Positions 926-11,698 of a DNA stretch of 11,698 nucleotides are shown in pieces; within the stretch, counting starts at the first letter, position 1, and every line of letters begins with the position of its first letter. The DNA is from Promethearchaeota archaeon (GTDB lineage Archaea; Asgardarchaeota; Lokiarchaeia; Sigyniarchaeales; SOKP01). The notes under the pieces are model-generated. The model was not told the DNA's origin. It saw nothing but the letters and a program-made list of their open reading frames with translations, and made no database searches. A program made the position numbers and the translations under genes. The stretch lies in assembly GCA_016840085.1 (NCBI GenBank), contig JAEOTA010000029.1, forward strand, positions 1-11,698, in the 5' to 3' direction.

Positions 926-1213
926 TTTTCAATCCTTATTTTTAATGGATATTATTATGCTATTCAGTGAGGAAGGAGCACTTTTCATTATTTCGAAAGA
1001 ACTATTTCAATCCTTATTTTAGTGGATAGTATTCCATTATTAACCACGTATGTTTGTATATATACTTTCAATCCTTGTTCGCGTGGATAATATTTAACGA
1101 CGCAAATAGAATTACGCATGAATTATTTCAATCCTTGTTCGCGTGGATAATATGAATGGGTAAAGTAGGGAGACCAAAGGGCTCATTTCAATCCTTGTTC
1201 GCGTGGATAATAT
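926..1213 (-). CRISPR. CRISPR array A1: three perfect 28-nt repeats, one intermediate repeat and one degenerate 37-nt-class trailer repeat; 4 spacers
   Basis: tttcaatccttgttcgcgtggataatat at 1066, 1126 and 1186. Variant tttcaatccttattttagtggatagtat at 1005-1032. Relic ttttcaatccttatttttaatggatattattatgctat at 926-963. Spacers are 32, 32, 33 and about 41 nt. Orientation is taken from the ATTGAAA 3' end, the leader on the right and degeneration on the left. Confidence 0.93.
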
Positions 1214-1292
1214 ACTAATTTCTTCCTATTCCATGATACCTACATGAAAATTTGTTGCCTATAGTATATAGAGAACGCCATCTATTTAAAAT
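1214..1292 (-). promoter_or_regulatory. Leader of array A1 (paralog of 2034-2118) with TATA-like TTTAAA at 1285-1290
   Basis: 1214-1272 matches 2034-2092 at 51/59 positions without gaps, and the TATA-like box lies at the same offset from the first repeat. Confidence 0.8.
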
Positions 1293-1322
1293 TGATGTCT
1301 AGATTTTTTTTTAACCACTTGA

Positions 1323-2033
1323 GTTTCAATCCTTGTTTTAGCGGATACTCTTATGCTATTATCTATAATGGTACCGAAATCTGAAGCTGAATTTGAATTT
1401 CAATCCTTGTTAGTGTGGATAATATGATCATTCTGGTTTTAACATGAAGAATAAACGTTTTCAATCCTTGTTCGCGTGGATAATATTTTTTAGGACTTCC
1501 TACTGCACTATACGATCTTTTTCAATCCTTGTTCGCGTGGATAATATTTCACATTTGAAGTATTATTTTTAATTGATGTTTTCAATCCTTGTTCGCGTGG
1601 ATAATATTCCATTCCAGTCATTCTGATTTCCTCTGCTTCTTTCAATCCTTGTTCGCGTGGATAATATGACTCATAGAGTCTTCCCATTCGGAATTCTCTA
1701 TTTCAATCCTTGTTCGCGTGGATAATATTTTTATCTCTCCGGCATACGGTAGAAATATCCCTTTCAATCCTTGTTCGCGTGGATAATATACTTTTACCTC
1801 AGTGATAGAATATGCCAAAGACTTTCAATCCTTGTTCGCGTGGATAATATAATATATCTATATAGCTAATCACACTGAGGGACTTTCAATCCTTGTTCGC
1901 GTGGATAATATTGAAAGTCTTCAAAACATTTATCAAGACATTTCTTTCAATCCTTGTTCGCGTGGATAATATAGAAGAAAAAGAATTAAAGAAGCCGGCA
2001 CGCCCTTTCAATCCTTGTTCGCGTGGATAATAT
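1323..2033 (-). CRISPR. CRISPR array A2: ten perfect 28-nt repeats, one variant and one 37-nt-class trailer repeat; 11 spacers
   Basis: Perfect repeats start at 1459, 1520, 1580, 1640, 1701, 1762, 1823, 1884, 1945 and 2006. Variant tttcaatccttgttagtgtggataatat at 1398-1425. The 37-nt repeat at 1323-1359 is 33/37 identical to the reverse complement of the right-hand repeat. Spacers are 33 nt (x8), 32 nt (x2) and 38 nt (oldest). Confidence 0.97.
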
Positions 2034-2118
2034 ACTAATTTCTTCCTATTTCATGATACTTACATAGGAATTTTTAGTCTATAGTATATAGAACACCTCT
2101 TCTCTATAAATTTTTTCT
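2034..2118 (-). promoter_or_regulatory. Leader/promoter of array A2 with archaeal BRE-TATA-like GAAAAAATTTATA (minus strand, TATA at 2105-2110)
   Basis: AT-rich segment between the cas6 stop and the first repeat, duplicated at 1214. It has a purine-rich BRE-like run followed by TTTATA, and the dyad CTATA-GTA-TATAG is conserved in both copies. Confidence 0.78.
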
Positions 2119-2139
2119 TTTTTCTACAAATTATTATAT

Positions 2140-2823
2140 TTAATTATTAGAAGTTTTTTTCACTGTACCAAATCCATGAGAGACTGCTTTCCCTATTCCT
2201 AAATAATCGGGAATTAAAAAATTAACCTCAAAAATTCCTTTAAACCCTACCATAGGCACATCCTTATATGAGACTTTTAGAGGGTATACTTCGATATCTA
2301 CTTGTATCGTATCAGGAACATCATATCCTAAATGTTTAGACATCGAAAGGATATTTCCAATAAGTATCTTTTTTAATAATTCCCGTCTTTCTTTTATAGA
2401 TGCCTTCTTAAATTTATTGTAATTCTCGCTGTTAAGCGCAAGCCATGGGGAATTATATTTGTAAGAGACCATCACACCTCCATTTGTAATACCAAACTCG
2501 GATTCTTCATAATGTGCTTTAATTTCAACGAGTTTATACGTAATTTTTCCTAAAAGAAGTTCCTTAATGTTCATTACTACATTTCTTAACACGGATATAG
2601 CATTATCTCCAATTCCGAGAATAATGGCTTTATTGCTGTTAATCTTATACTGTATTTTAGGGTATTCGTATTTTAACCTCTTCTTTCCTTCGGAAGAGTT
2701 CAGGTGATGATGCAACTCGGTATATTTTTTAAATTCTGACCCAACAAATCCCCTTAAGTGAGTGGGTGTCTCTTCAATTATCTTATCTGTAATTAAAAAT
2801 AAGTGTAATATTTTTAACTTCAT
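2140..2823 (-). CDS. cas6: CRISPR pre-crRNA processing endoribonuclease Cas6 (Cas6b-like)
   Basis: 227 aa. LRGFVG...LHHH...YEYPKIQYK N-terminal pattern typical of Cas6b, C-terminal G-rich loop GIGKAVSHGFG, and located next to the array. Confidence 0.95.
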   Translation of the reverse strand: MKLKILHLFLITDKIIEETPTHLRGFVGSEFKKYTELHHHLNSSEGKKRLKYEYPKIQYKINSNKAIILGIGDNAISVLRNVVMNIKELLLGKITYKLVEIKAHYEESEFGITNGGVMVSYKYNSPWLALNSENYNKFKKASIKERRELLKKILIGNILSMSKHLGYDVPDTIQVDIEVYPLKVSYKDVPMVGFKGIFEVNFLIPDYLGIGKAVSHGFGTVKKTSNN

Positions 2824-2842: not shown

Positions 2843-4306
2843 TTATAATTTTAAGATAATATTTTCTATTTTTTCATTAATCTGCTTAAATATATTGGAA
2901 AGATCTAGGTCTTTATTATCTAAGAATAGATAGAGAATTTCTTCCAAATTATTCTTCAATCTAAGATATAACTTTTCTATACTCTCTCCGTATAATTTTT
3001 CAATTTTTTCTCTTGATATAGGATCAAAACCATGAGCGATTATTGAACTGTTCCTTAAATCTCCTAAGCATTCCGTGCTTTTCTTATCCTTATATTTTTG
3101 AATTCGATCTTGCTCATTTAACTCTTTATATTGATATTTATTGATCTTATCAAAAAGTTCTAAAATGCTCATCAACGGTTTAATATTCTTGTCAAGAGTT
3201 CCTAATTTTAAAAATGCAATATAGAAAAAAACAGGACGTCCCAAATCATCGGTATCTATTTTTAACTTAAATGTCTTATAATGTTTGTTTTGAAGGGAAT
3301 TCCATATATCCGGTTCTTTTTTTTCTAAATATTGTGAAAATTTAAGATGATTTTCTTTTCTATTTAGATCTTCTTTAAAATTATCTCTAAATAGATAGTT
3401 ATTTATCTCGTATAAAAGCGCTTCTTCTAATCGAAATAACAGTGCTACGAAAAATAAATAATTCTGATTAGTATAATTAATTTCCATATTCCAAAAAAGC
3501 TCTTTAATTAATTCAATGGGTTTTAATTGTCCTTGTAAATTGAAGATCTTATATTGTTGATGTAAAGAATGAGGAGTTAGGTCTAAAAATTGTTTAAAAT
3601 GTTCTTGCGCTTTTTCAAAATCAAAATTCTTTCTTTGCTGGGCATATTTTAATAAAAAAACTAGACATTCAGTATCTTGTAATTTGCTCCTTTCCAACAG
3701 TTCTATGATTGATTTATATTGGTTTGTTTTTAATAACTCTATACACGATTTTTTGACTAATATTTTATTTATTGTCTTTTCATGATTTACAGGATATAAT
3801 TTATTCTTAAACACATTATAAAACTCATTACCTTCAAGATATAATGATGATAAAATTACATAAACAGCCCCATTCATTTGAGGCGTCCCTCCAGATAAAG
3901 AAATTATTCTTTTCTCTGTTCTTCCTATTATACTCTCTTCTTGAGTAAAATAATTAGTAAAAAAACTATACACCTTTTCATAATCAGTTGGATTATTAGT
4001 ATATTGAATTACATTAACTCGAATATTATAGGTATCTCGAATCCACTTTTTAATAATTTGTCCTAAAAAAAGAGTATCTGAATTTCTAACTCTCTGATCT
4101 TCTTGATTGGTTACAAAAATATAGATATTTTTTAATTTATTGGCGAATATTTTTAAGAAAGGTTCAAGTAGAGGATATGTAAGTTTTTCTTTTTCCATAT
4201 CATAATTATTAAACAACTCTTCACCTTTTTGCCTCACATTATCTCGTTCTAATGTATTATCATTATATAGAACATCCCTATTACCAATATTAGAAATTAG
4301 AATCAC
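2843..4306 (-). CDS. csm6: Csm6-like CARF-helical-HEPN cyclic-oligoadenylate-activated ribonuclease
   Basis: 487 aa with a GTG start. N-terminal CARF Rossmann fold (ILISNIGNRD, ISLSGGTPQM), helical middle region, and HEPN RX6H motif RNSSIIAH(GF). Lies between csm5 and cas6. Confidence 0.85.
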   Translation of the reverse strand: MILISNIGNRDVLYNDNTLERDNVRQKGEELFNNYDMEKEKLTYPLLEPFLKIFANKLKNIYIFVTNQEDQRVRNSDTLFLGQIIKKWIRDTYNIRVNVIQYTNNPTDYEKVYSFFTNYFTQEESIIGRTEKRIISLSGGTPQMNGAVYVILSSLYLEGNEFYNVFKNKLYPVNHEKTINKILVKKSCIELLKTNQYKSIIELLERSKLQDTECLVFLLKYAQQRKNFDFEKAQEHFKQFLDLTPHSLHQQYKIFNLQGQLKPIELIKELFWNMEINYTNQNYLFFVALLFRLEEALLYEINNYLFRDNFKEDLNRKENHLKFSQYLEKKEPDIWNSLQNKHYKTFKLKIDTDDLGRPVFFYIAFLKLGTLDKNIKPLMSILELFDKINKYQYKELNEQDRIQKYKDKKSTECLGDLRNSSIIAHGFDPISREKIEKLYGESIEKLYLRLKNNLEEILYLFLDNKDLDLSNIFKQINEKIENIILKL

Positions 4307-4354: not shown

Positions 4355-5659
4355 CTAATCCCACGTTAATTTAACCCAACCAAATGGAGCGATTAATTTT
4401 TCATTGTCAGATACGACAAATTTTCTTGTAAGAGGAAATAAATAACCTCTGGCTTTTTCTTCTTCACTATCAAATAATTTTTTTATTCTTTCTAATAAAG
4501 TCACATATTTATTGTTCCCCCTTATTGTAACAACGCTACATAACCACTTTTCATTTATCTTGGGTTTATTTGGTGAATCTCTATCGGGAAGAATAGTATA
4601 TCGTCCCTGTTTTGCTATTCCATATTCCTTATTATATCTATCTGGGATATTAAAATGAAAAATCTCTAAACCCTTGTATTTCCTGACAATCTGTTTATTA
4701 TCTGTGAAATTTAAAAATAAAGTTATTCCTAAAATGCTTGAACCTTGACCTAAACGAAGTATACATTCACTATCTTTCAGATGTGTTAATTCGTTATTTA
4801 GTTTCTTATAGAATCCAATAATCTCATCTAAATTAGGATCTTTTCTGTCTGTGAATTCTTTTAGCTCATACTCTATAATTTCTTTAGAAAAATCATTTAT
4901 TGCGTTGAGTATATTTTCTTGTGTTAAATCAAAATTATCAGAAATTAAAGCCTTTGCATCAGTTAATTTATTGTTAATTTTGATAGTACCTGAGCTATAA
5001 AAATTCTCATCTAAAATCTCATAATAGATAGGGATGGTAGATTTTTTATCTCTTAAGTGATAAACTGTAGATCCTGTAATTTTGATAGGTGATGTTTTAT
5101 CAATATGCGAATCCGATATAATTAATGCTCTAAGTAAATCAGTTGTCCCATCTTTTTGAATTAATTTCATTATTTCTTGATCATTGAAGCGATCAATTAC
5201 ATTTCTTATGACATTTTTTTTTTTCTCAGGGTGTTCCTTTAAAATCTTAAATAAAATGGCGGTTCTTACTGCTCCTTTTATACTAGAACCAGGAATGTAG
5301 ATTTGATTTCCAGTTTTAATAAATTGATTAATTTCATTTTTACCAATTCTCCCGATTAGATCATACTTTCTCTCCACTGATTTCTCCCAATCTATTTTAT
5401 ATCTGCTTAAAAATTCTTTAGTATCTCCTTTCCAAATATTATTTTCAAAATTTTCGTTGATATCATTTGTTAAATCATCGATAACTTCAAGTGGAATTTC
5501 TGAAATTAGTGTATCAAAATCTAATATAAAAATGTAGTTTTCATGGTAAATATAATCAAGTTGTGAATATTTCTCACCAGAACCTATATGTAGTGGAGAT
5601 AATCCTCTTAAGGTTAAGATATGAGATTTTTGACTTATATTTATTCCTTTATCTGTCAT
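4355..5659 (-). CDS. csm5: Type III-A RAMP Csm5 (Cas7 group) with a C-terminal insertion
   Basis: LSPLHIGSG, YIPGSSIKGAVRTA, LRLGQGS, FPLTR and PFGWV motifs. The ORF track starts at 5686; ATG at 5659 is preferred because it lies just after the csm4 stop with GAGGT upstream. Confidence 0.95.
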   Translation of the reverse strand: MTDKGINISQKSHILTLRGLSPLHIGSGEKYSQLDYIYHENYIFILDFDTLISEIPLEVIDDLTNDINENFENNIWKGDTKEFLSRYKIDWEKSVERKYDLIGRIGKNEINQFIKTGNQIYIPGSSIKGAVRTAILFKILKEHPEKKKNVIRNVIDRFNDQEIMKLIQKDGTTDLLRALIISDSHIDKTSPIKITGSTVYHLRDKKSTIPIYYEILDENFYSSGTIKINNKLTDAKALISDNFDLTQENILNAINDFSKEIIEYELKEFTDRKDPNLDEIIGFYKKLNNELTHLKDSECILRLGQGSSILGITLFLNFTDNKQIVRKYKGLEIFHFNIPDRYNKEYGIAKQGRYTILPDRDSPNKPKINEKWLCSVVTIRGNNKYVTLLERIKKLFDSEEEKARGYLFPLTRKFVVSDNEKLIAPFGWVKLTWD

Positions 5660-5663
5660 TTTT

Positions 5664-6845
5664 TTAATCGACCTCTCCCTTTCCAATGTTTAAATAGACT
5701 CCAATTCCATTCTTATAGATTTTATGGTATTTGCCTATAAACTCATCAGAAGCTACTTGAATTATTTTTCCTTGAATTTGCTTTTCGAATATTGCACCCT
5801 CTTCAATGAATTTAACATCATTAAATCTTTGAGAAATATTATCCACCGAATAAACAAACCCACTTCTTCCATATATATTGAAGAACTTTACATTTTGAAT
5901 CTCCTCTAAACTAGGATATACCAGAGAAATATTTGTGACATACCCTTTATCCTCTTCTTTAAAGAGATCAATATATTCAAAATTCTCATCTAGTTCTTTA
6001 ATATCAATATTATCTACTAACCCACAACCAATACTTCTTTTACCTCCAAGCCCTTCATCCGTAATTAATTTGATAGATGATAAAATTTTATTAATTAATT
6101 CATTAGCTAACCCTGAATAATCTAATAAAAAGTAGAATCCCGGAATTAGTTGAAAATTTATTTCACTTCCATTTTCTTTCACATAATATTTTGATATGTG
6201 GAACTTAAACTTTGGCCATGTGAAAGGTTCAGACTCTTTACTAGTTCTGCTGATTCTTACTTTTTGTTCGTCTAAAATTTCAAATATGGTTACTTTTCTC
6301 CGAATTGCTCGTTCTATCTTTTCTATTTTTGCGTTAGAATTATCAATTAAACTAAGAAATCCTTTTAATCCTAACAGTTCAATATCTTTTTCATGGACTA
6401 AATAATTCCCATCTATTATATGGTATTGACTTAAAGATATATTTTGCCCTTGTTGAAGCCTTCTTAATATTTCAAAAGAAATAAACTGAACTTTTTTTAG
6501 TGATTTTGGATTTTCATCAAGATATTCTTGAGATTTCTCATCTAAAGGAAATCTAATTAACGGCTTTGGTAAGAAATAAATAGTATTATAATATTCACTA
6601 TCTCTATAGATGTCAATATAATGAAAGCACGAAGACAATCTAAAAAATTCTGATTCACTATTCTCAAGTTCAATTATATGAGCTAAGCACTCTTTTAAAC
6701 TACTATTCCCATAAAGCTTTCGTACATTATTACAAATAGCACTAAATAATGTATCACTATGAATAATTGAACTAATACTTCCTGTATAATCCTTTCCAAT
6801 GCTGAAATAGTTCCTCTCTTTAGAGACTAATTTTATTATATACAT
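5664..6845 (-). CDS. csm4: Type III-A RAMP Csm4 (Cas5 group)
   Basis: IHSDTLFSAI, LSSCF, FLPKP, GLGGKRSIGCG, RSGFV and EEGAIF motifs. The ORF track starts at 6872; ATG at 6845 (MYIIKL) is more likely. Confidence 0.95.
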   Translation of the reverse strand: MYIIKLVSKERNYFSIGKDYTGSISSIIHSDTLFSAICNNVRKLYGNSSLKECLAHIIELENSESEFFRLSSCFHYIDIYRDSEYYNTIYFLPKPLIRFPLDEKSQEYLDENPKSLKKVQFISFEILRRLQQGQNISLSQYHIIDGNYLVHEKDIELLGLKGFLSLIDNSNAKIEKIERAIRRKVTIFEILDEQKVRISRTSKESEPFTWPKFKFHISKYYVKENGSEINFQLIPGFYFLLDYSGLANELINKILSSIKLITDEGLGGKRSIGCGLVDNIDIKELDENFEYIDLFKEEDKGYVTNISLVYPSLEEIQNVKFFNIYGRSGFVYSVDNISQRFNDVKFIEEGAIFEKQIQGKIIQVASDEFIGKYHKIYKNGIGVYLNIGKGEVD

Positions 6846-7608
6846 TAACGAACCAATCTTTATTTTCAACATCCTTTAAATTAAAATTTTCAGCTAAAAA
6901 TGTCTCTGCCTTTTCATGAGTATAGTAATTATTATCCCGAAGTATCATTTTTATCTCCTCAAAGCTTATTTTTCCACTTCCCCGTGAACCACTTCCTCCC
7001 AGATAATCATCCTCGAGTAATTTTAAACCTTGAAAAAGAACTTCTATTAACTCTTTGTCTTTTTCAGAAAATAAATCTAAAATGATTTCAAAATCAAATT
7101 GCGCTTCTACTGGTACTCTTTCAAGATGTCTTGGATTTGCTCTGGCAGAAATTCTATCTACTGTGTTCTCAATTTTATCTTCAGTATAATCTAATTCAAG
7201 ATTCTTAAAAAACAAGTCTTTATTTTCCTCGAAAAATGCCTCATCCAAAAATGAATCTCGAAAAATTCCTCTTCCCGGTTCATTGACTTCTGGTGCACCA
7301 AAAATTTTTATAATATCATCAACGGTATCATCTTCAAAATTATGTATTACCATCTTGGGATCAAAAAATCCATTGCCGTCATTTTTGTCTTCAGTCCTGA
7401 GGGGGTAATAATTTTGCTCAAGAAGACTTCTCAATTTTCCTTTTATTGTACTTCCTGGAATGTATGGTATACCTTTTGAGTCTTTAATTACTGGATTATC
7501 AACACCACCAATATCTAATGAAGTTTTACTACCTCCAATAGCGAGTCCTGTCTTTACTTTTATTTTTCCTGTTAATATAACTTTTCCTTTAAGTTGATAT
7601 TCTTCCAT
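6820..7608 (-). CDS. csm3: Type III-A backbone RNase Csm3 (Cas7 group)
   Basis: TGLAIGG, GGVDNPVIKD (catalytic Asp position retained), PYIPGSTIKGKLRSLLE, KIENTVDR, ANPRHLERVP and YLGGSGSRGSG motifs. SD GGAGGTGA upstream. Confidence 0.97.
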   Translation of the reverse strand: MEEYQLKGKVILTGKIKVKTGLAIGGSKTSLDIGGVDNPVIKDSKGIPYIPGSTIKGKLRSLLEQNYYPLRTEDKNDGNGFFDPKMVIHNFEDDTVDDIIKIFGAPEVNEPGRGIFRDSFLDEAFFEENKDLFFKNLELDYTEDKIENTVDRISARANPRHLERVPVEAQFDFEIILDLFSEKDKELIEVLFQGLKLLEDDYLGGSGSRGSGKISFEEIKMILRDNNYYTHEKAETFLAENFNLKDVENKDWFVNVYNKISL

Positions 7609-7613
7609 ATTTT

Positions 7614-8045
7614 TTAATCACCTCCAGAAGCTTTATGATATGCTAATATTGCTTCAAAAAACTCCTTAAAACCTTCTAAAGTTTTATTATCATTTACTTT
7701 TTTAATTAATTCAATTAATACATTTGTTAGTGGTTCTAATACTTCAAATCTGCCTTTCTGATAAGCTAATTTGGGGCGTAATAAATTTAGATCTTTTTTG
7801 CTTTCTTCAAAATTATCAGGTAACCTCTTTACAGTATTGAAAATTCCTCTGATTTGCGATGTTGAAATAAGTTTTCCTCTATATCGATAATGAGCACACA
7901 TTACACCAAAGTCTTCACTTAATTCTATAAACCTATTTATATCCTCCATAGTCTCTTTTTTCAAAATTTTGTCGGAATTATTAATTATATCATTAGCTAC
8001 TTTCATGATATCGTCTCTTCTTATTCTTCTTCTAGCATATGACAT
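7614..8045 (-). CDS. csm2: Type III-A small subunit Csm2 (Cas11)
   Basis: 143 aa, helical. STSQIRGIF, LRPKLAYQKGR and FFEAILAYHK motifs. GAGGT SD upstream. Confidence 0.96.
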   Translation of the reverse strand: MSYARRRIRRDDIMKVANDIINNSDKILKKETMEDINRFIELSEDFGVMCAHYRYRGKLISTSQIRGIFNTVKRLPDNFEESKKDLNLLRPKLAYQKGRFEVLEPLTNVLIELIKKVNDNKTLEGFKEFFEAILAYHKASGGD

Positions 8046-8082: not shown

Positions 8083-10698
8083 TTATTTTCTTGTTAAATA
8101 ATCTGCCCATTTTACTGCAACAGATATGAAATTTATAGTTTTTGTTTGTAAAGTTGAATCTGGTTTGAATAAATTATCAATTATAATAATTTCTACCATC
8201 TGAATAATAAACTTGGTCAATGACCTTACTTCAGGGTTTCTTGACCATAAAACAGTTCTTAAATAATATTTCAATCTCCATAATTTAGGAACTCGAATTC
8301 TTCTTTCTAGTGAATCTTCCAATAATATTCTTAACCCTAAAACTGAACTTTCAAGTTTATGGAGCATTGATTTAGAAAAATTCTTCTCTCTGATTAAATA
8401 AAATAAAATATCTTTTAAAGTAAGAGTTAATTCAAACTCTGATTTACTATTAATCCACTTAAGAATTTCCTCTTTTAATTCTTCAATTTTCTCGATTTTC
8501 ATAATTTTCAGTATTTGTTCTCTATGATACTTCTCTATTTTTTTCGAATCTTCTGAAAATTCATTATACTCATCTTCTTTTTCTAAGCTCCAATCCCAAT
8601 TCAAAACCAAGCCAAATAGTGAAATCTTATTTTTGGTATTACCCTTACCTGTAAATATTTCGAATTGTTTTGCTCTATTTATCTCATCTTCGGCGTTTAA
8701 TGAAGCTTTGATTATAGGAAAAGTAGAGGGTTCAAGAATTATAGCTGCACTTAAAGTTATATCAGGATTAAATGCCGTGAATCTCCTAAAATCTCTATAT
8801 AATCTAAATGAGAATTCAATTAATTTATCCCATGAACCAACAGCAAATAAATCATCTCCTCCAGAAAATATAAGATAGACTGAATCAGAAAATTCTGATT
8901 GAACAAGTCTAGGAACATATCCCTCAAAAAATAATGTTAATGAAGAACTTAAGGTAGAGACTCTTGATATTGTATTATTTTTACCTAAGCCTTTTTGAAA
9001 AATTTTTCCTAAAGAATCGACATCCATTTTTAAAATTCCAAGTTTGTTAAATCCTGTTCTCTGATGTGCTTGATCAGCTAACTTACTATTATCTAAAATA
9101 ATTCCAAATTTATCAAGCGGAAAAGCAATAGGAAATTGTATATCGCCTATTGTATTCTCTAATGATGGATTATTTATGGAATACCATTTATTTTGATTCT
9201 CTTTCACATTTTCTTTAAATTTAACTGCTTTTTCAAATTTATTTAAGATTCTGTTATAACTCTCTGAACCGAATTGAGTATTTTTATAAAAAATACTAGA
9301 TTTTAAATCATCTGTCAAATCTTTAAAGCTCTTACACATTATACACCAATAATCATCAGTATCAGGCATTTTTTCTAGATTTTCAAATGAATTACAAATT
9401 GCACATCGTTGAATTTTATTTGCAGAACCTTCAACTGGACCAAATATTTTTGAGAAATATTCTTGCTTTGCTCTTTTAATTATATCACTAAATTTTTTAT
9501 TCTTCTTTATAGAAGTCGTAATATTAACTTTTTTCCAACTTTCAGAGATGTTAAAAACTAAATCCTCAATAGATAAAGGTATGTAATCTAAAGCAAGATA
9601 AAGATTTGCATTGAATTGTTCAATGAATAATTTATTTATTTTTAATGAAATTTCACTTAACTTAGATTTAAGATCCTTTGAGTAATGACCAATTATATAA
9701 AAATGACCTCCCCCAGCAAATATAATGTTTACCTGTGTTAATTCTAACTGTTCAATTATATACTGAGCGAAATTTTCGGTTAATAAACTAAAGAAAAATG
9801 ATCGACCTTTTAATGTCTTCATAGCATATTTGGATGAGATCAAATGGATAAATTTCTGAATACCCGAGAAATCTCCGTGAATAAAGGTGAATAATTTACG
9901 ATCTTCAAAGATTTCTTTTTTTACATCATCCTTTTCTATTTCTTTTCGGTAAACATCGCCCTTAACATATAATTCTTTAAGGATTTGTCCCATCCTATTT
10001 AGTGTTTCAATCTCATGCTCTTTAATAATTGAATTAAATTTAAAATAATTATCAAGAGCCACCGCAATGGCACAAACCATTTTTGAGTGATCAAATAAAC
10101 TAATGTCAGGCTCAACAAAATAAGCAGCTGATGGTATAAATTTAAAATGTCTTTTTAGAAGGGAGAACAAAAATTCAAATAGGTTCTTGAAATCACCTTT
10201 ATGTTCTTTAATTCTGTCAAAACTATCTTTAAAAGAAACCCAATTATCTAAAAAATATTGTTCTAAAGAATCTATAACTTTTTCTCTTAAAAAAGGGAAA
10301 ATTTCTATTGAATCATCTTTTAAAATTAATTGTTTCCCTAAATAATAAAATTTTGGATGGTCTTTTTCCTTAAATATGGATATTTTTGAAAAAATCGGTG
10401 TTAATCCAATCCTCCTTATATCTTCTTTCTTTTCAATCCCTATTCTTTCTGATGAGGCTAACCAATCGGCAATAATTAATTTTTTTAACAAATTATAGCC
10501 ATCAGTATTGAAAAAGTCTTCGATACCAGTCTGATGATGTAAAGAAATCAAACTAGTAACGTTAGGTAAAATCTCGTCATATTTTTGAATTAAATTCTTC
10601 CCAATCTCTTGATGAGTCCCACTTTCACCAGAACGATACCCTAGTTTTCCAATATCATGTAAAAGAGCAGCAAATATTAGTTGGAATTTGTCATTCAT
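8083..10698 (-). CDS. cas10: Type III-A large subunit Cas10/Csm1 with intact HD nuclease and GGDD cyclase motifs
   Basis: 871 aa. ALLHDIGK (HD), IIADWLAS, DISLFDHSK, GDFSGIQKFI, LKGRSF, GGGHF, Zn finger CAIC...CIMC, KMDVDSLG and FSGGDDLF motifs. Confidence 0.98.
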   Translation of the reverse strand: MNDKFQLIFAALLHDIGKLGYRSGESGTHQEIGKNLIQKYDEILPNVTSLISLHHQTGIEDFFNTDGYNLLKKLIIADWLASSERIGIEKKEDIRRIGLTPIFSKISIFKEKDHPKFYYLGKQLILKDDSIEIFPFLREKVIDSLEQYFLDNWVSFKDSFDRIKEHKGDFKNLFEFLFSLLKRHFKFIPSAAYFVEPDISLFDHSKMVCAIAVALDNYFKFNSIIKEHEIETLNRMGQILKELYVKGDVYRKEIEKDDVKKEIFEDRKLFTFIHGDFSGIQKFIHLISSKYAMKTLKGRSFFFSLLTENFAQYIIEQLELTQVNIIFAGGGHFYIIGHYSKDLKSKLSEISLKINKLFIEQFNANLYLALDYIPLSIEDLVFNISESWKKVNITTSIKKNKKFSDIIKRAKQEYFSKIFGPVEGSANKIQRCAICNSFENLEKMPDTDDYWCIMCKSFKDLTDDLKSSIFYKNTQFGSESYNRILNKFEKAVKFKENVKENQNKWYSINNPSLENTIGDIQFPIAFPLDKFGIILDNSKLADQAHQRTGFNKLGILKMDVDSLGKIFQKGLGKNNTISRVSTLSSSLTLFFEGYVPRLVQSEFSDSVYLIFSGGDDLFAVGSWDKLIEFSFRLYRDFRRFTAFNPDITLSAAIILEPSTFPIIKASLNAEDEINRAKQFEIFTGKGNTKNKISLFGLVLNWDWSLEKEDEYNEFSEDSKKIEKYHREQILKIMKIEKIEELKEEILKWINSKSEFELTLTLKDILFYLIREKNFSKSMLHKLESSVLGLRILLEDSLERRIRVPKLWRLKYYLRTVLWSRNPEVRSLTKFIIQMVEIIIIDNLFKPDSTLQTKTINFISVAVKWADYLTRK

Positions 10699-11287
10699 CG
10701 TAATTTAACTTTATCTAACCCTATAAAAATAAAAATTTTACATGAATATTAACAAAAATGTCCTTATAAGATTAACTATTTAAGTTTTAATTAGAGTAAA
10801 AATTTTTTTAAGGGAATTTTATCTTTTTTTTAAAAGAGTGTAATTGCTGAATTTTCATATTTTTTTAAGACTTAATTTTAAGGTTAAAATCATATTTAAA
10901 GTATATAAAGAATTTCGAGCATCGACACCATAATTTTTACATTTTTATAAATTTCTATTTTGAATATTCATTAAATAAGTATAAAATTATCACCTTTCGA
11001 GGAAAAGACTAATTGATCATGCAATCTTAAAACAGATATTTAATCTTTTTAATTTGGGCCATTTACTTATAATTCGAAAAATCTTCAATTTAATTTAAGA
11101 TACAGTTTAATTGCATTTAATAAAAGCGAATTATAAGCTTTTAGAGCATTTTCTGAGAATTGAATTTCATCGAGTATCTTTTTAAGTAAAATGAAAATTT
11201 GTTAATGCTCGAACAAAGATATTTAAAAATTAAAAAGAAATAAGATTAAATAATTTTTTATCATATTCTATTATAGTATTATAAAGG
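10699..11287. promoter_or_regulatory. AT-rich divergent intergenic region holding the cas10 operon promoter (minus) and the leader of array B (plus)
   Basis: 589 nt with no ORF in the track, between the cas10 start and the first 37-nt repeat. Several TTTAAA/TTTATA-like boxes are present, but the exact promoters cannot be pinned down. Confidence 0.65.
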
Positions 11288-11698
11288 ATAGCATAGAAAT
11301 ATCCACTAAAACAAGGATTGAAACTTTATATTTCTCAATTTTTAGCATAAGAGTTTGTTGAGTTATAGCATAGAAATATCCACTAAAACAAGGATTGAAA
11401 CCTAAGATAATTCTTAACTGAATTAAAATCCAAATACTTTAATAGCATAGAAATATCCACTAAAACAAGGATTGAAACTTATATATACATCTGGTTTCGT
11501 CCACATCGGACAGATAATAGCATAGAAATATCCACTAAAACAAGGATTGAAACTAGACATAACAAATTCATTATCTTCGCTCATTACAACTATATCATAG
11601 AAATATACACTAAAACAAGGATTGAAACTCAGAGTATCTATTCTTTCTTCTACATCTTTAAGGATAGCATAGAAATATCCACTAAAACAAGGATTGAA
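11288..11698 (+). CRISPR. CRISPR array B: 37-nt repeat ATAGCATAGAAATATCCACTAAAACAAGGATTGAAAC, at least 6 repeats, runs off the window
   Basis: Repeats at 11288, 11365, 11442, 11517, 11592 (2 substitutions) and 11664 (truncated). Spacers are 40, 40, 38, 38 and 35 nt. The repeat ends in the canonical ATTGAAAC handle. Confidence 0.98.

Follow-up and report, generated by a model that had tools for sequence, protein, structure and literature searches.

Beside the III-A operon of this Lokiarchaeial genome lie arrays of 28-nt repeats and 32–33-nt spacers, and we conclude, with a probability of roughly 0.7, that they carry a Cas6b-type repeat cut to type I-E size and were filled in trans, now or formerly, by a Cas1e–Cas2e integrase. 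Evidence for this reading comes from, among other things, the geometry of the units, the end of the leader, the 5′ half of the repeat, the frequency of G as the first spacer base and the presence of I-E operons in the same assemblies as loci of this kind.

Organization of the locus and its mosaic arrays

The window, i.e. the whole stretch of DNA analysed (11698 nt), is the complete contig C16 of a metagenome-assembled genome of 4.68 Mb, 29.5% GC and 98.8% completeness. In a profile search cas10, csm2, csm3, csm4 and csm5 all exceeded the NCBIfam cut-offs, which identifies the locus as subtype III-A, and the minus-strand operon runs in the order cas10, csm2, csm3, csm4, csm5, a weak csm6 and cas6b (Table 1). 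Neither cas1 nor cas2 is present at this locus in the window, where the contig ends inside array B, and both genes are likewise absent from the III-A loci L034, L038, L173, L177 and L180.

Table 1. Features of the 11698-nt window
Feature	Position	Strand	Remarks
Terminal degenerate long repeat (927–963) and 41-nt spacer (964–1004)	927–1004	-	
Array A2	1005–1213	-	three perfect 28-nt repeats and a degenerate copy (1005–1032); spacers of 32, 32 and 33 nt
Trailer and leader 2	1214–1322	-	leader 2 has 86% identity with leader 1 over the proximal 59 nt
Long 37-nt-type repeat (1323–1359) and 38-nt spacer (1360–1397)	1323–1397	-	
Array A1	1398–2033	-	11 repeats of 28 nt and 10 spacers of 33/32 nt
Leader 1 of short-repeat array	2034–2139	-	ends in TTAGT, as native Lokiarchaeial I-E leaders do
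cas6b	2140–2823	-	72–77% identity with Cas6b of short-repeat-only loci, 50–66% with long-repeat loci
csm6-like CARF-HEPN gene	2843–4306	-	scores under curated cut-offs
csm5	4355–5686	-	profile match
csm4	5664–6872	-	profile match
csm3	6820–7608	-	profile match
csm2	7614–8045	-	profile match
cas10/csm1	8083–10698	-	HD and GGDD motifs both present; groups with long-repeat III-A loci
Array B leader (70 nt examined)	11218–11287	+	ends in TATAAAGG, unlike I-E leaders
Array B	11288–11698	+	37-nt repeats, 35–40-nt spacers; cut by the contig end

The region to the left of cas6b consists of two cassettes, each with its own leader, a division that had escaped the earlier note on this DNA, as had the long repeat at the end of each of them. 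In each cassette perfect short repeats give way to an intermediate copy, a 38- or 41-nt spacer and a long-type repeat; in array A1, for example, ten repeats are identical and the distal copy is intermediate towards the long repeat. Because a repeat of the long 37-nt type, preceded by a long spacer, closes each cassette, these arrays are mosaics of both unit types. In Promethearchaeota archaeon YT_039, a member of the same family (genome G121; locus L027, contig C48), the array begins with long units and a trailer; the same leader follows, then ten short units, four long ones and finally short ones again, and the long-repeat/trailer/leader junction of the window is also found in this independent genome. 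It is likely that the mosaics arose by recombination through the 3′ part that is common to both repeats, in which the longest contiguous shared stretch is 14–15 bases at most.

The short repeat lacks the first eight bases and the last base of the long one. As the earlier note had stated, it agrees with positions 9–36 of the 37-nt repeat of array B at 22 of 28 positions (read on the minus strand) and has the 4-bp ATCC/GGAT stem in common with it; the spacer lengths given there were also reproduced, with nine spacers of 33 nt and four of 32 nt in the short arrays and with 40, 40, 38, 38 and 35 nt (period 72) measured in array B, where 35–40 nt had been reported. Among 228 short-array spacers 24 are of 32 nt, 194 of 33 nt and ten of 34 nt, compared with 2, 155 and 3 respectively in native Lokiarchaeial I-E arrays and with lengths of 36–46 nt in long arrays. 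With a standard deviation of length of 0.38 nt in these 228 spacers, as compared with 1.9 nt among the 112 spacers from long arrays, the fixed geometry of the short units is not a matter of chance, and the 28-bp repeat with a 33-bp spacer is that of an I-E-adapted array.

Leader and repeat compared with type I-E

A comparison with native I-E leaders, which the earlier note had proposed, showed that the leader ends are alike. AGT stands at the leader end in 19 of 21 short-repeat leaders, nine of ten I-E leaders and none of 11 long-repeat leaders (leaders of related organisms, which are not independent), and the I-E leader of L215 ends in AAAAAAGTAGT, identical over 11 nt with many short-repeat leaders. 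On alignment to I-E leaders the median z was 3.1 for short-repeat and -0.4 for long-repeat leaders, dropping to 1.2 and -0.9 when the last 10 nt were removed; an I-E-like leader–repeat junction is present, strongest in its last 10–11 nt and weak upstream. The two leaders of the window, with z values of 2.3 and 2.9, carry a weaker variant of this end.

Owing to the point at which the repeat is cut, CCAC falls at positions 8–11, which is also its place in I-E. The 5′ half of the short repeat agrees with the Lokiarchaeial I-E repeat at 8–10 of 14 positions, against 5–6 of 14 for the corresponding frame of the long repeat, the increase being due to changes at positions 1, 2, 12 and 13; the 3′ half agrees at four of 14. 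The long GC stem is missing, as noted before: the fold energy is -1.8 kcal/mol compared with -11.7 kcal/mol for the native I-E repeat, the long stem made by IR1 and IR2 in I-E is not formed and the IR2 motif is lacking. In E. coli both inverted repeats are essential for efficient adaptation, although mutation of IR2 brings into play a 16-nt ruler that is set from IR1 (positions 6–12) (Goren 2016, PMC5039180).

The earlier note had argued from the E. coli repeat. With that repeat as typed there we recovered its identity of 15/28, but the frame of the 37-mer already gives 12/28; similarly, positions 2, 4, 12 and 13 do shift towards E. coli, but position 1 shifts away. Taken alone, this comparison (four of six changes) is a weak argument, the informative standard being the I-E repeat and leader of the Lokiarchaeia themselves. 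The description of the repeat as a two-piece chimera was not borne out either. We rejected a simple chimera of this kind, as I-E-type substitutions occur only at positions 1, 2, 12 and 13 and positions 3 and 6–7 remain of the long-repeat type, kept for the Cas6b stem.

Composition, strand and targets of the spacers

G is the first base of 83 of 228 short-array spacers (36%; background 12%), 17 of 112 long-array spacers, 157 of 160 native I-E spacers (98%) and seven of the 13 in the window, and it exceeds expectation in nearly every short-array locus. As a PAM-type signature this bias is weak. In E. coli the first-base G of the spacer derives from the AAG PAM (PMC7054753), and a bias that is only partial is what one would predict if no selection for a PAM is exerted by Csm. 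The short arrays also display a mirror bias, with C as the last base of 81 of 228 spacers and G of only ten. We considered a ‘flipped spacer’ origin of the C-last bias, which is not supported, G-first and C-last being independent.

Strand bias was read from spacer composition and not from targets. The pyrimidine (antisense) bias of the short arrays (176:51) runs in the opposite direction to that of native I-E arrays (58:101), a codon model gave 105:29 antisense for the short-array spacers, and the long III-A arrays are antisense-biased as well. For these figures, as for the leaders, arrays of related organisms are non-independent samples and the statistics overstate. The family-wide antisense bias fits RNA targeting, approximately 65% of type III spacers being of the RNA-targeting strand (PMC8482600). 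There is no strand bias in the window, where 12 spacers split 6:6, or in G121 (three of nine); with this even split, the case for use of the spacers by Csm at this locus rests on position, Cas6b and the conserved stem and handle.

No protospacer, and with it no PAM, was found when viral contigs were scanned for exact copies of the repeat and of two spacers, by blastn of the array against phages, by comparison of the L039 array with 135 genomes of the family or by comparison of all spacers with this genome. A 33-nt match of the L039 array in G020 proved to be leader DNA and not a spacer. Two short-array spacers overlap I-E spacers of L215 on the opposite strand and in an end-compatible manner (19/21 and 13/13; none in a reversed control), which suggests that both arrays met the same invaders and may have had a host in common. 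In the 13-nt overlap, a single case, GA precedes the G.

Search for the integrase

Contig C22 encodes the only Cas1 of this genome. The gene shares its operon with cas2 and cas4, a I-B effector lies next to it, and the array found there has 37-nt repeats and 35–43-nt spacers. With 32 bits against the I-E Cas1 profile (cut-off 215.6) this protein is not of the I-E type, and the expectation of the earlier note that the genome would hold an I-E-type Cas1 plus a second one was thus disappointed. The C22 operon (L002:7082–11800) comprises a 443-aa ORF of no assigned function, cas1, cas2, cas4 and a beta-CASP nuclease gene; the 443-aa ORF also lies upstream of cas1 in G081, and cas8b of C22 is split into ORFs of 508 and 147 aa.

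Searches of this genome for cas1e, cas2e, cse1, cse2 and cas6e found none of them, the I-E profiles matching only Cas1 and Cas3 of C22, and neither an I-E gene nor a remnant of one was detected in the 98.8%-complete assembly. When I-E Cas1 and two diverged Asgard Cas1s were used as seeds, iterative searches gave nothing beyond C22, a weak test in that the diverged seeds drew in almost no relatives. Diverged Cas1 domains are found within open frames of ~1950–2160 aa in L125 (G057) and in contig C87 of G062. YT_039, the second short-repeat genome, has no Cas1 at all. The short repeat is absent from all eight genomes with Cas1e, none of three Cas1e loci looked up lies in a short-repeat genome, and no genome with both was found, among GTDB genomes of which only three have the repeat and in which assemblies break at arrays; the genomes of GCA_019057775 (L173), L175 and L179 were left out of the Cas1 searches.

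I-E Cas1 matches occur in eight of 161 genomes of the class (five above the cut-off), three of them within this genus. Full I-E operons share assemblies with short-repeat III-A loci: L184 with L181, L185 with L180, and both L183 and L215 with L177; the I-E locus L186 is in SDBV01. The Lokiarchaeial I-E Cas2 (L132:12538–13701; also L213, L215 and L218) has ~370–390 aa and a C-terminal exonuclease domain of the RNase_H_2 family. In addition, contig C69 of this genome carries, at ~168345–168440, an orphan I-E-type mini-array of two repeats. Its period is 61 nt, it has no cas genes in its vicinity, and its leader end, GAAAAGTAGT, resembles those of short-repeat leaders; it is possibly a vestige of I-E, belonging either to this lineage or to a mobile element. 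The proposal of the earlier note that an I-E-like integrase acts in trans is partly supported, by geometry, leader end, repeat 5′ half and G-first bias, but not by the co-occurrence of Cas1e in any genome.

Distribution among relatives

The short repeat, with its 61-nt period and conserved leader, was found in 16 metagenome stretches. Short arrays are the only array type beside the complete III-A operons L034/L177, L038, L173 and L180, and the related operons in G115, G081, L175 and L179 have long repeats only. In phylogenetic trees Cas10, Csm5 and Csm6 of the window group with long-repeat loci (support 96–99), Csm4 more weakly (88), and the Cas6b sequences of long-repeat loci form a group that excludes the window Cas6b (support 92/91). 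Together with the higher identity of the window Cas6b to that of short-repeat loci (Table 1), these trees suggest that cas6b, leader and short array may have come in as one block.

Several further occurrences were recorded. In the III-A loci L082, L175 and L180 short arrays are numerous and each has a leader to itself, the repeats of L175 varying strongly within an array. A decayed short-repeat array with no leader and no cas genes nearby lies at ~7200–7550 of L083 (G096, same genus). This genome itself has a solitary near-perfect short repeat, again with neither leader nor cas genes (L003 ~6870–6950; C9:70913–70940), whose upstream bases resemble the 5′ end of the long repeat and which is followed downstream by a degenerate repeat remnant; it is possibly a decayed array or a regulatory or decoy repeat. 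Near the start of contig C42, positions 144–164 reproduce 21 nt of proximal leader 1 exactly, with no repeat behind them. A pattern match in G203 was rejected as a short array, being coding sequence.

Proposed mechanism and alternative explanations

We propose that Cas1e–Cas2e, with its Cas2–exonuclease fusion, would dock at the leader end and at the CCACGC motif at repeat positions 8–13, duplicate 28 bp and insert 33-bp spacers whose first base is often a PAM-derived G. Cas6b, which is present in the window, would cut the unchanged 4-bp stem of both repeats. As seven handle bases are conserved in the short repeat, the 8-nt handle of a short-array guide would consist of these and the first spacer base, the latter replacing the terminal C of the long repeat. 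A single Csm would load guides from both unit types, and selection would keep mostly antisense spacers with no PAM enforced. The long units were most likely written by the Cas4-associated Cas1 of contig C22, and the I-E module may be either unbinned or lost from this lineage. We go further only tentatively, at slightly less than even odds, in proposing that cas6b, the I-E-type leader and the 28-nt repeat form a portable adaptor that plugs a III-A effector into I-E adaptation and was recombined here onto a long-repeat csm operon, so that one Csm would be fed by two unrelated integrases (Cas4-type and I-E), with the mosaics recording both.

Against filling by I-E enzymes stand the missing co-occurrence with Cas1e, the absence of IR2 and GC stem, a G-first frequency of 36% in place of 98%, the C-last bias and the even strand split in the window; in its favour it counts that IR1 alone can serve as a ruler in E. 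coli. The lack of Cas1e in short-repeat genomes and of IR2 in the repeat could point to a different integrase with a fixed 33-nt ruler, either a diverged Asgard Cas1 or one borne on an element, with the I-E likeness of the leader reflecting a shared host factor or promoter. The symmetrical G-first/C-last bias, unlike that of native I-E arrays, and reports of very diverged Cas1 homologues in Asgard archaea (PMC8730458) would agree with this. We nevertheless consider it unlikely, since length spectrum, leader end and positions 8–13 match the local I-E systems specifically and since the iterative searches reached only C22, albeit with diverged seeds of little recruiting power. That the C22 Cas1–Cas2 alone writes both geometries, its ruler being switched by leader or repeat, seems improbable to us. 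It is the only Cas1 in a nearly complete assembly, single arrays alternate both unit types, and the beta-CASP nuclease and 443-aa ORF of its operon could trim prespacers; yet spacer length is fixed by the integrase and by trimming before integration, not by the array, and the spacers of the C22 array itself are long. Moreover, only long units are present in G081, where this Cas1 module and a III-A locus both occur, and the G-first bias is restricted to short units.

Two further explanations concern the arrays rather than their integrase. I-E enzymes could fill the short arrays while the crRNAs go to a type I Cascade or have no use at all, with the proximity of csm being incidental; the geometry and the missing strand bias in the window and in G121 are what this would lead one to expect. 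We regard it, too, as improbable, as short arrays are the sole arrays flanking complete csm–cas6b operons in five other loci, the antisense bias is family-wide, the repeat has no Cas6e-type stem and 64% of the spacers do without the G that native I-E keeps almost invariably. Finally, a window that is a whole contig of a metagenome-assembled genome invites the suspicion that the mosaic is an assembly chimera, which is scarcely credible given the same mosaic and junction in YT_039 and the brevity of the sequence shared by the two repeat types. If filling of the short arrays by I-E enzymes is correct, this natural 28-mer separates what the integrase needs (leader end, length, positions 1–2 and 8–13) from what processing and effector need (4-bp stem and 3′ handle) and challenges the rule from E. 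coli that I-E adaptation needs both inverted repeats. As type III selects no PAM, the 228 spacers would record the capture bias of I-E (G-first and C-last) free of Cascade selection, and the locus would let one test directly how a type III system that lacks cas1/cas2 changes its adaptation partner.

Relation to known systems

The short arrays share with I-E systems (E. coli; Lokiarchaeial L132, L184, L190 and L215) the 28-bp repeat, the 33-bp spacer, the leader end, the IR1-region motif at positions 8–13 and the tendency towards a first G. They differ from them in that IR2 and the long stem are lacking, the locus carries no I-E genes, G comes first in only 36% of spacers and the bias is antisense where that of native I-E arrays is sense. 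The repeats of array B and the long ones that end the two cassettes are members of the 37-nt ...ATTGAAAC repeat family of archaeal type III and I-B systems, near-identical members of which have been classed as III-B with a TTA PAM (PMC8482600 supplement); the short repeat keeps the stem and 3′ handle of this family but departs from it in length, leader and fixed-length spacers.

Category 2 of Vink et al. 2021 comprises type III arrays that receive their spacers in trans from type I machinery, with I-E and type III together in three genomes (PMC8482600). Our locus resembles these cases in being a type III locus without cas1/cas2 that bears a type I acquisition signature, the RNA-strand bias being seen family-wide and not in the window. 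In contrast, neither this genome nor G121 has the donor I-E, which we found only elsewhere in the genus and in the metagenomes concerned. That catalogue has two type III repeats (one III-B and one III-D) whose AA PAM is of the I-E type, and each is a complete I-E-type repeat, GC stem included (PMC8482600). The repeat described here, by comparison, is of the Cas6b/ATTGAAA type, truncated and with no more than four I-E-type substitutions, and it moreover coexists and interleaves with its long parent repeat. A further parallel is the VI-B array of Flavobacterium columnare, shown experimentally to be filled in trans by a II-C Cas1–Cas2 (Hoikkala et al. 2021, PMC8092290): it too is an RNA-targeting locus without cas1/cas2 that has a donor-sized repeat and is adapted in trans despite sequence differences, but it is Class 2, with one array type and one donor. 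Our literature search, which did not extend to Makarova 2020 on Asgard Cas1, brought up no account of a repeat of Cas6b type that has been shortened to I-E size behind an I-E-like leader, nor of arrays in which the two kinds of unit are interleaved. The sharing of adaptation from type I to type III has already been established computationally, and what appears to be new here, with good though circumstantial support, is the remodelled repeat and the mosaic arrays.
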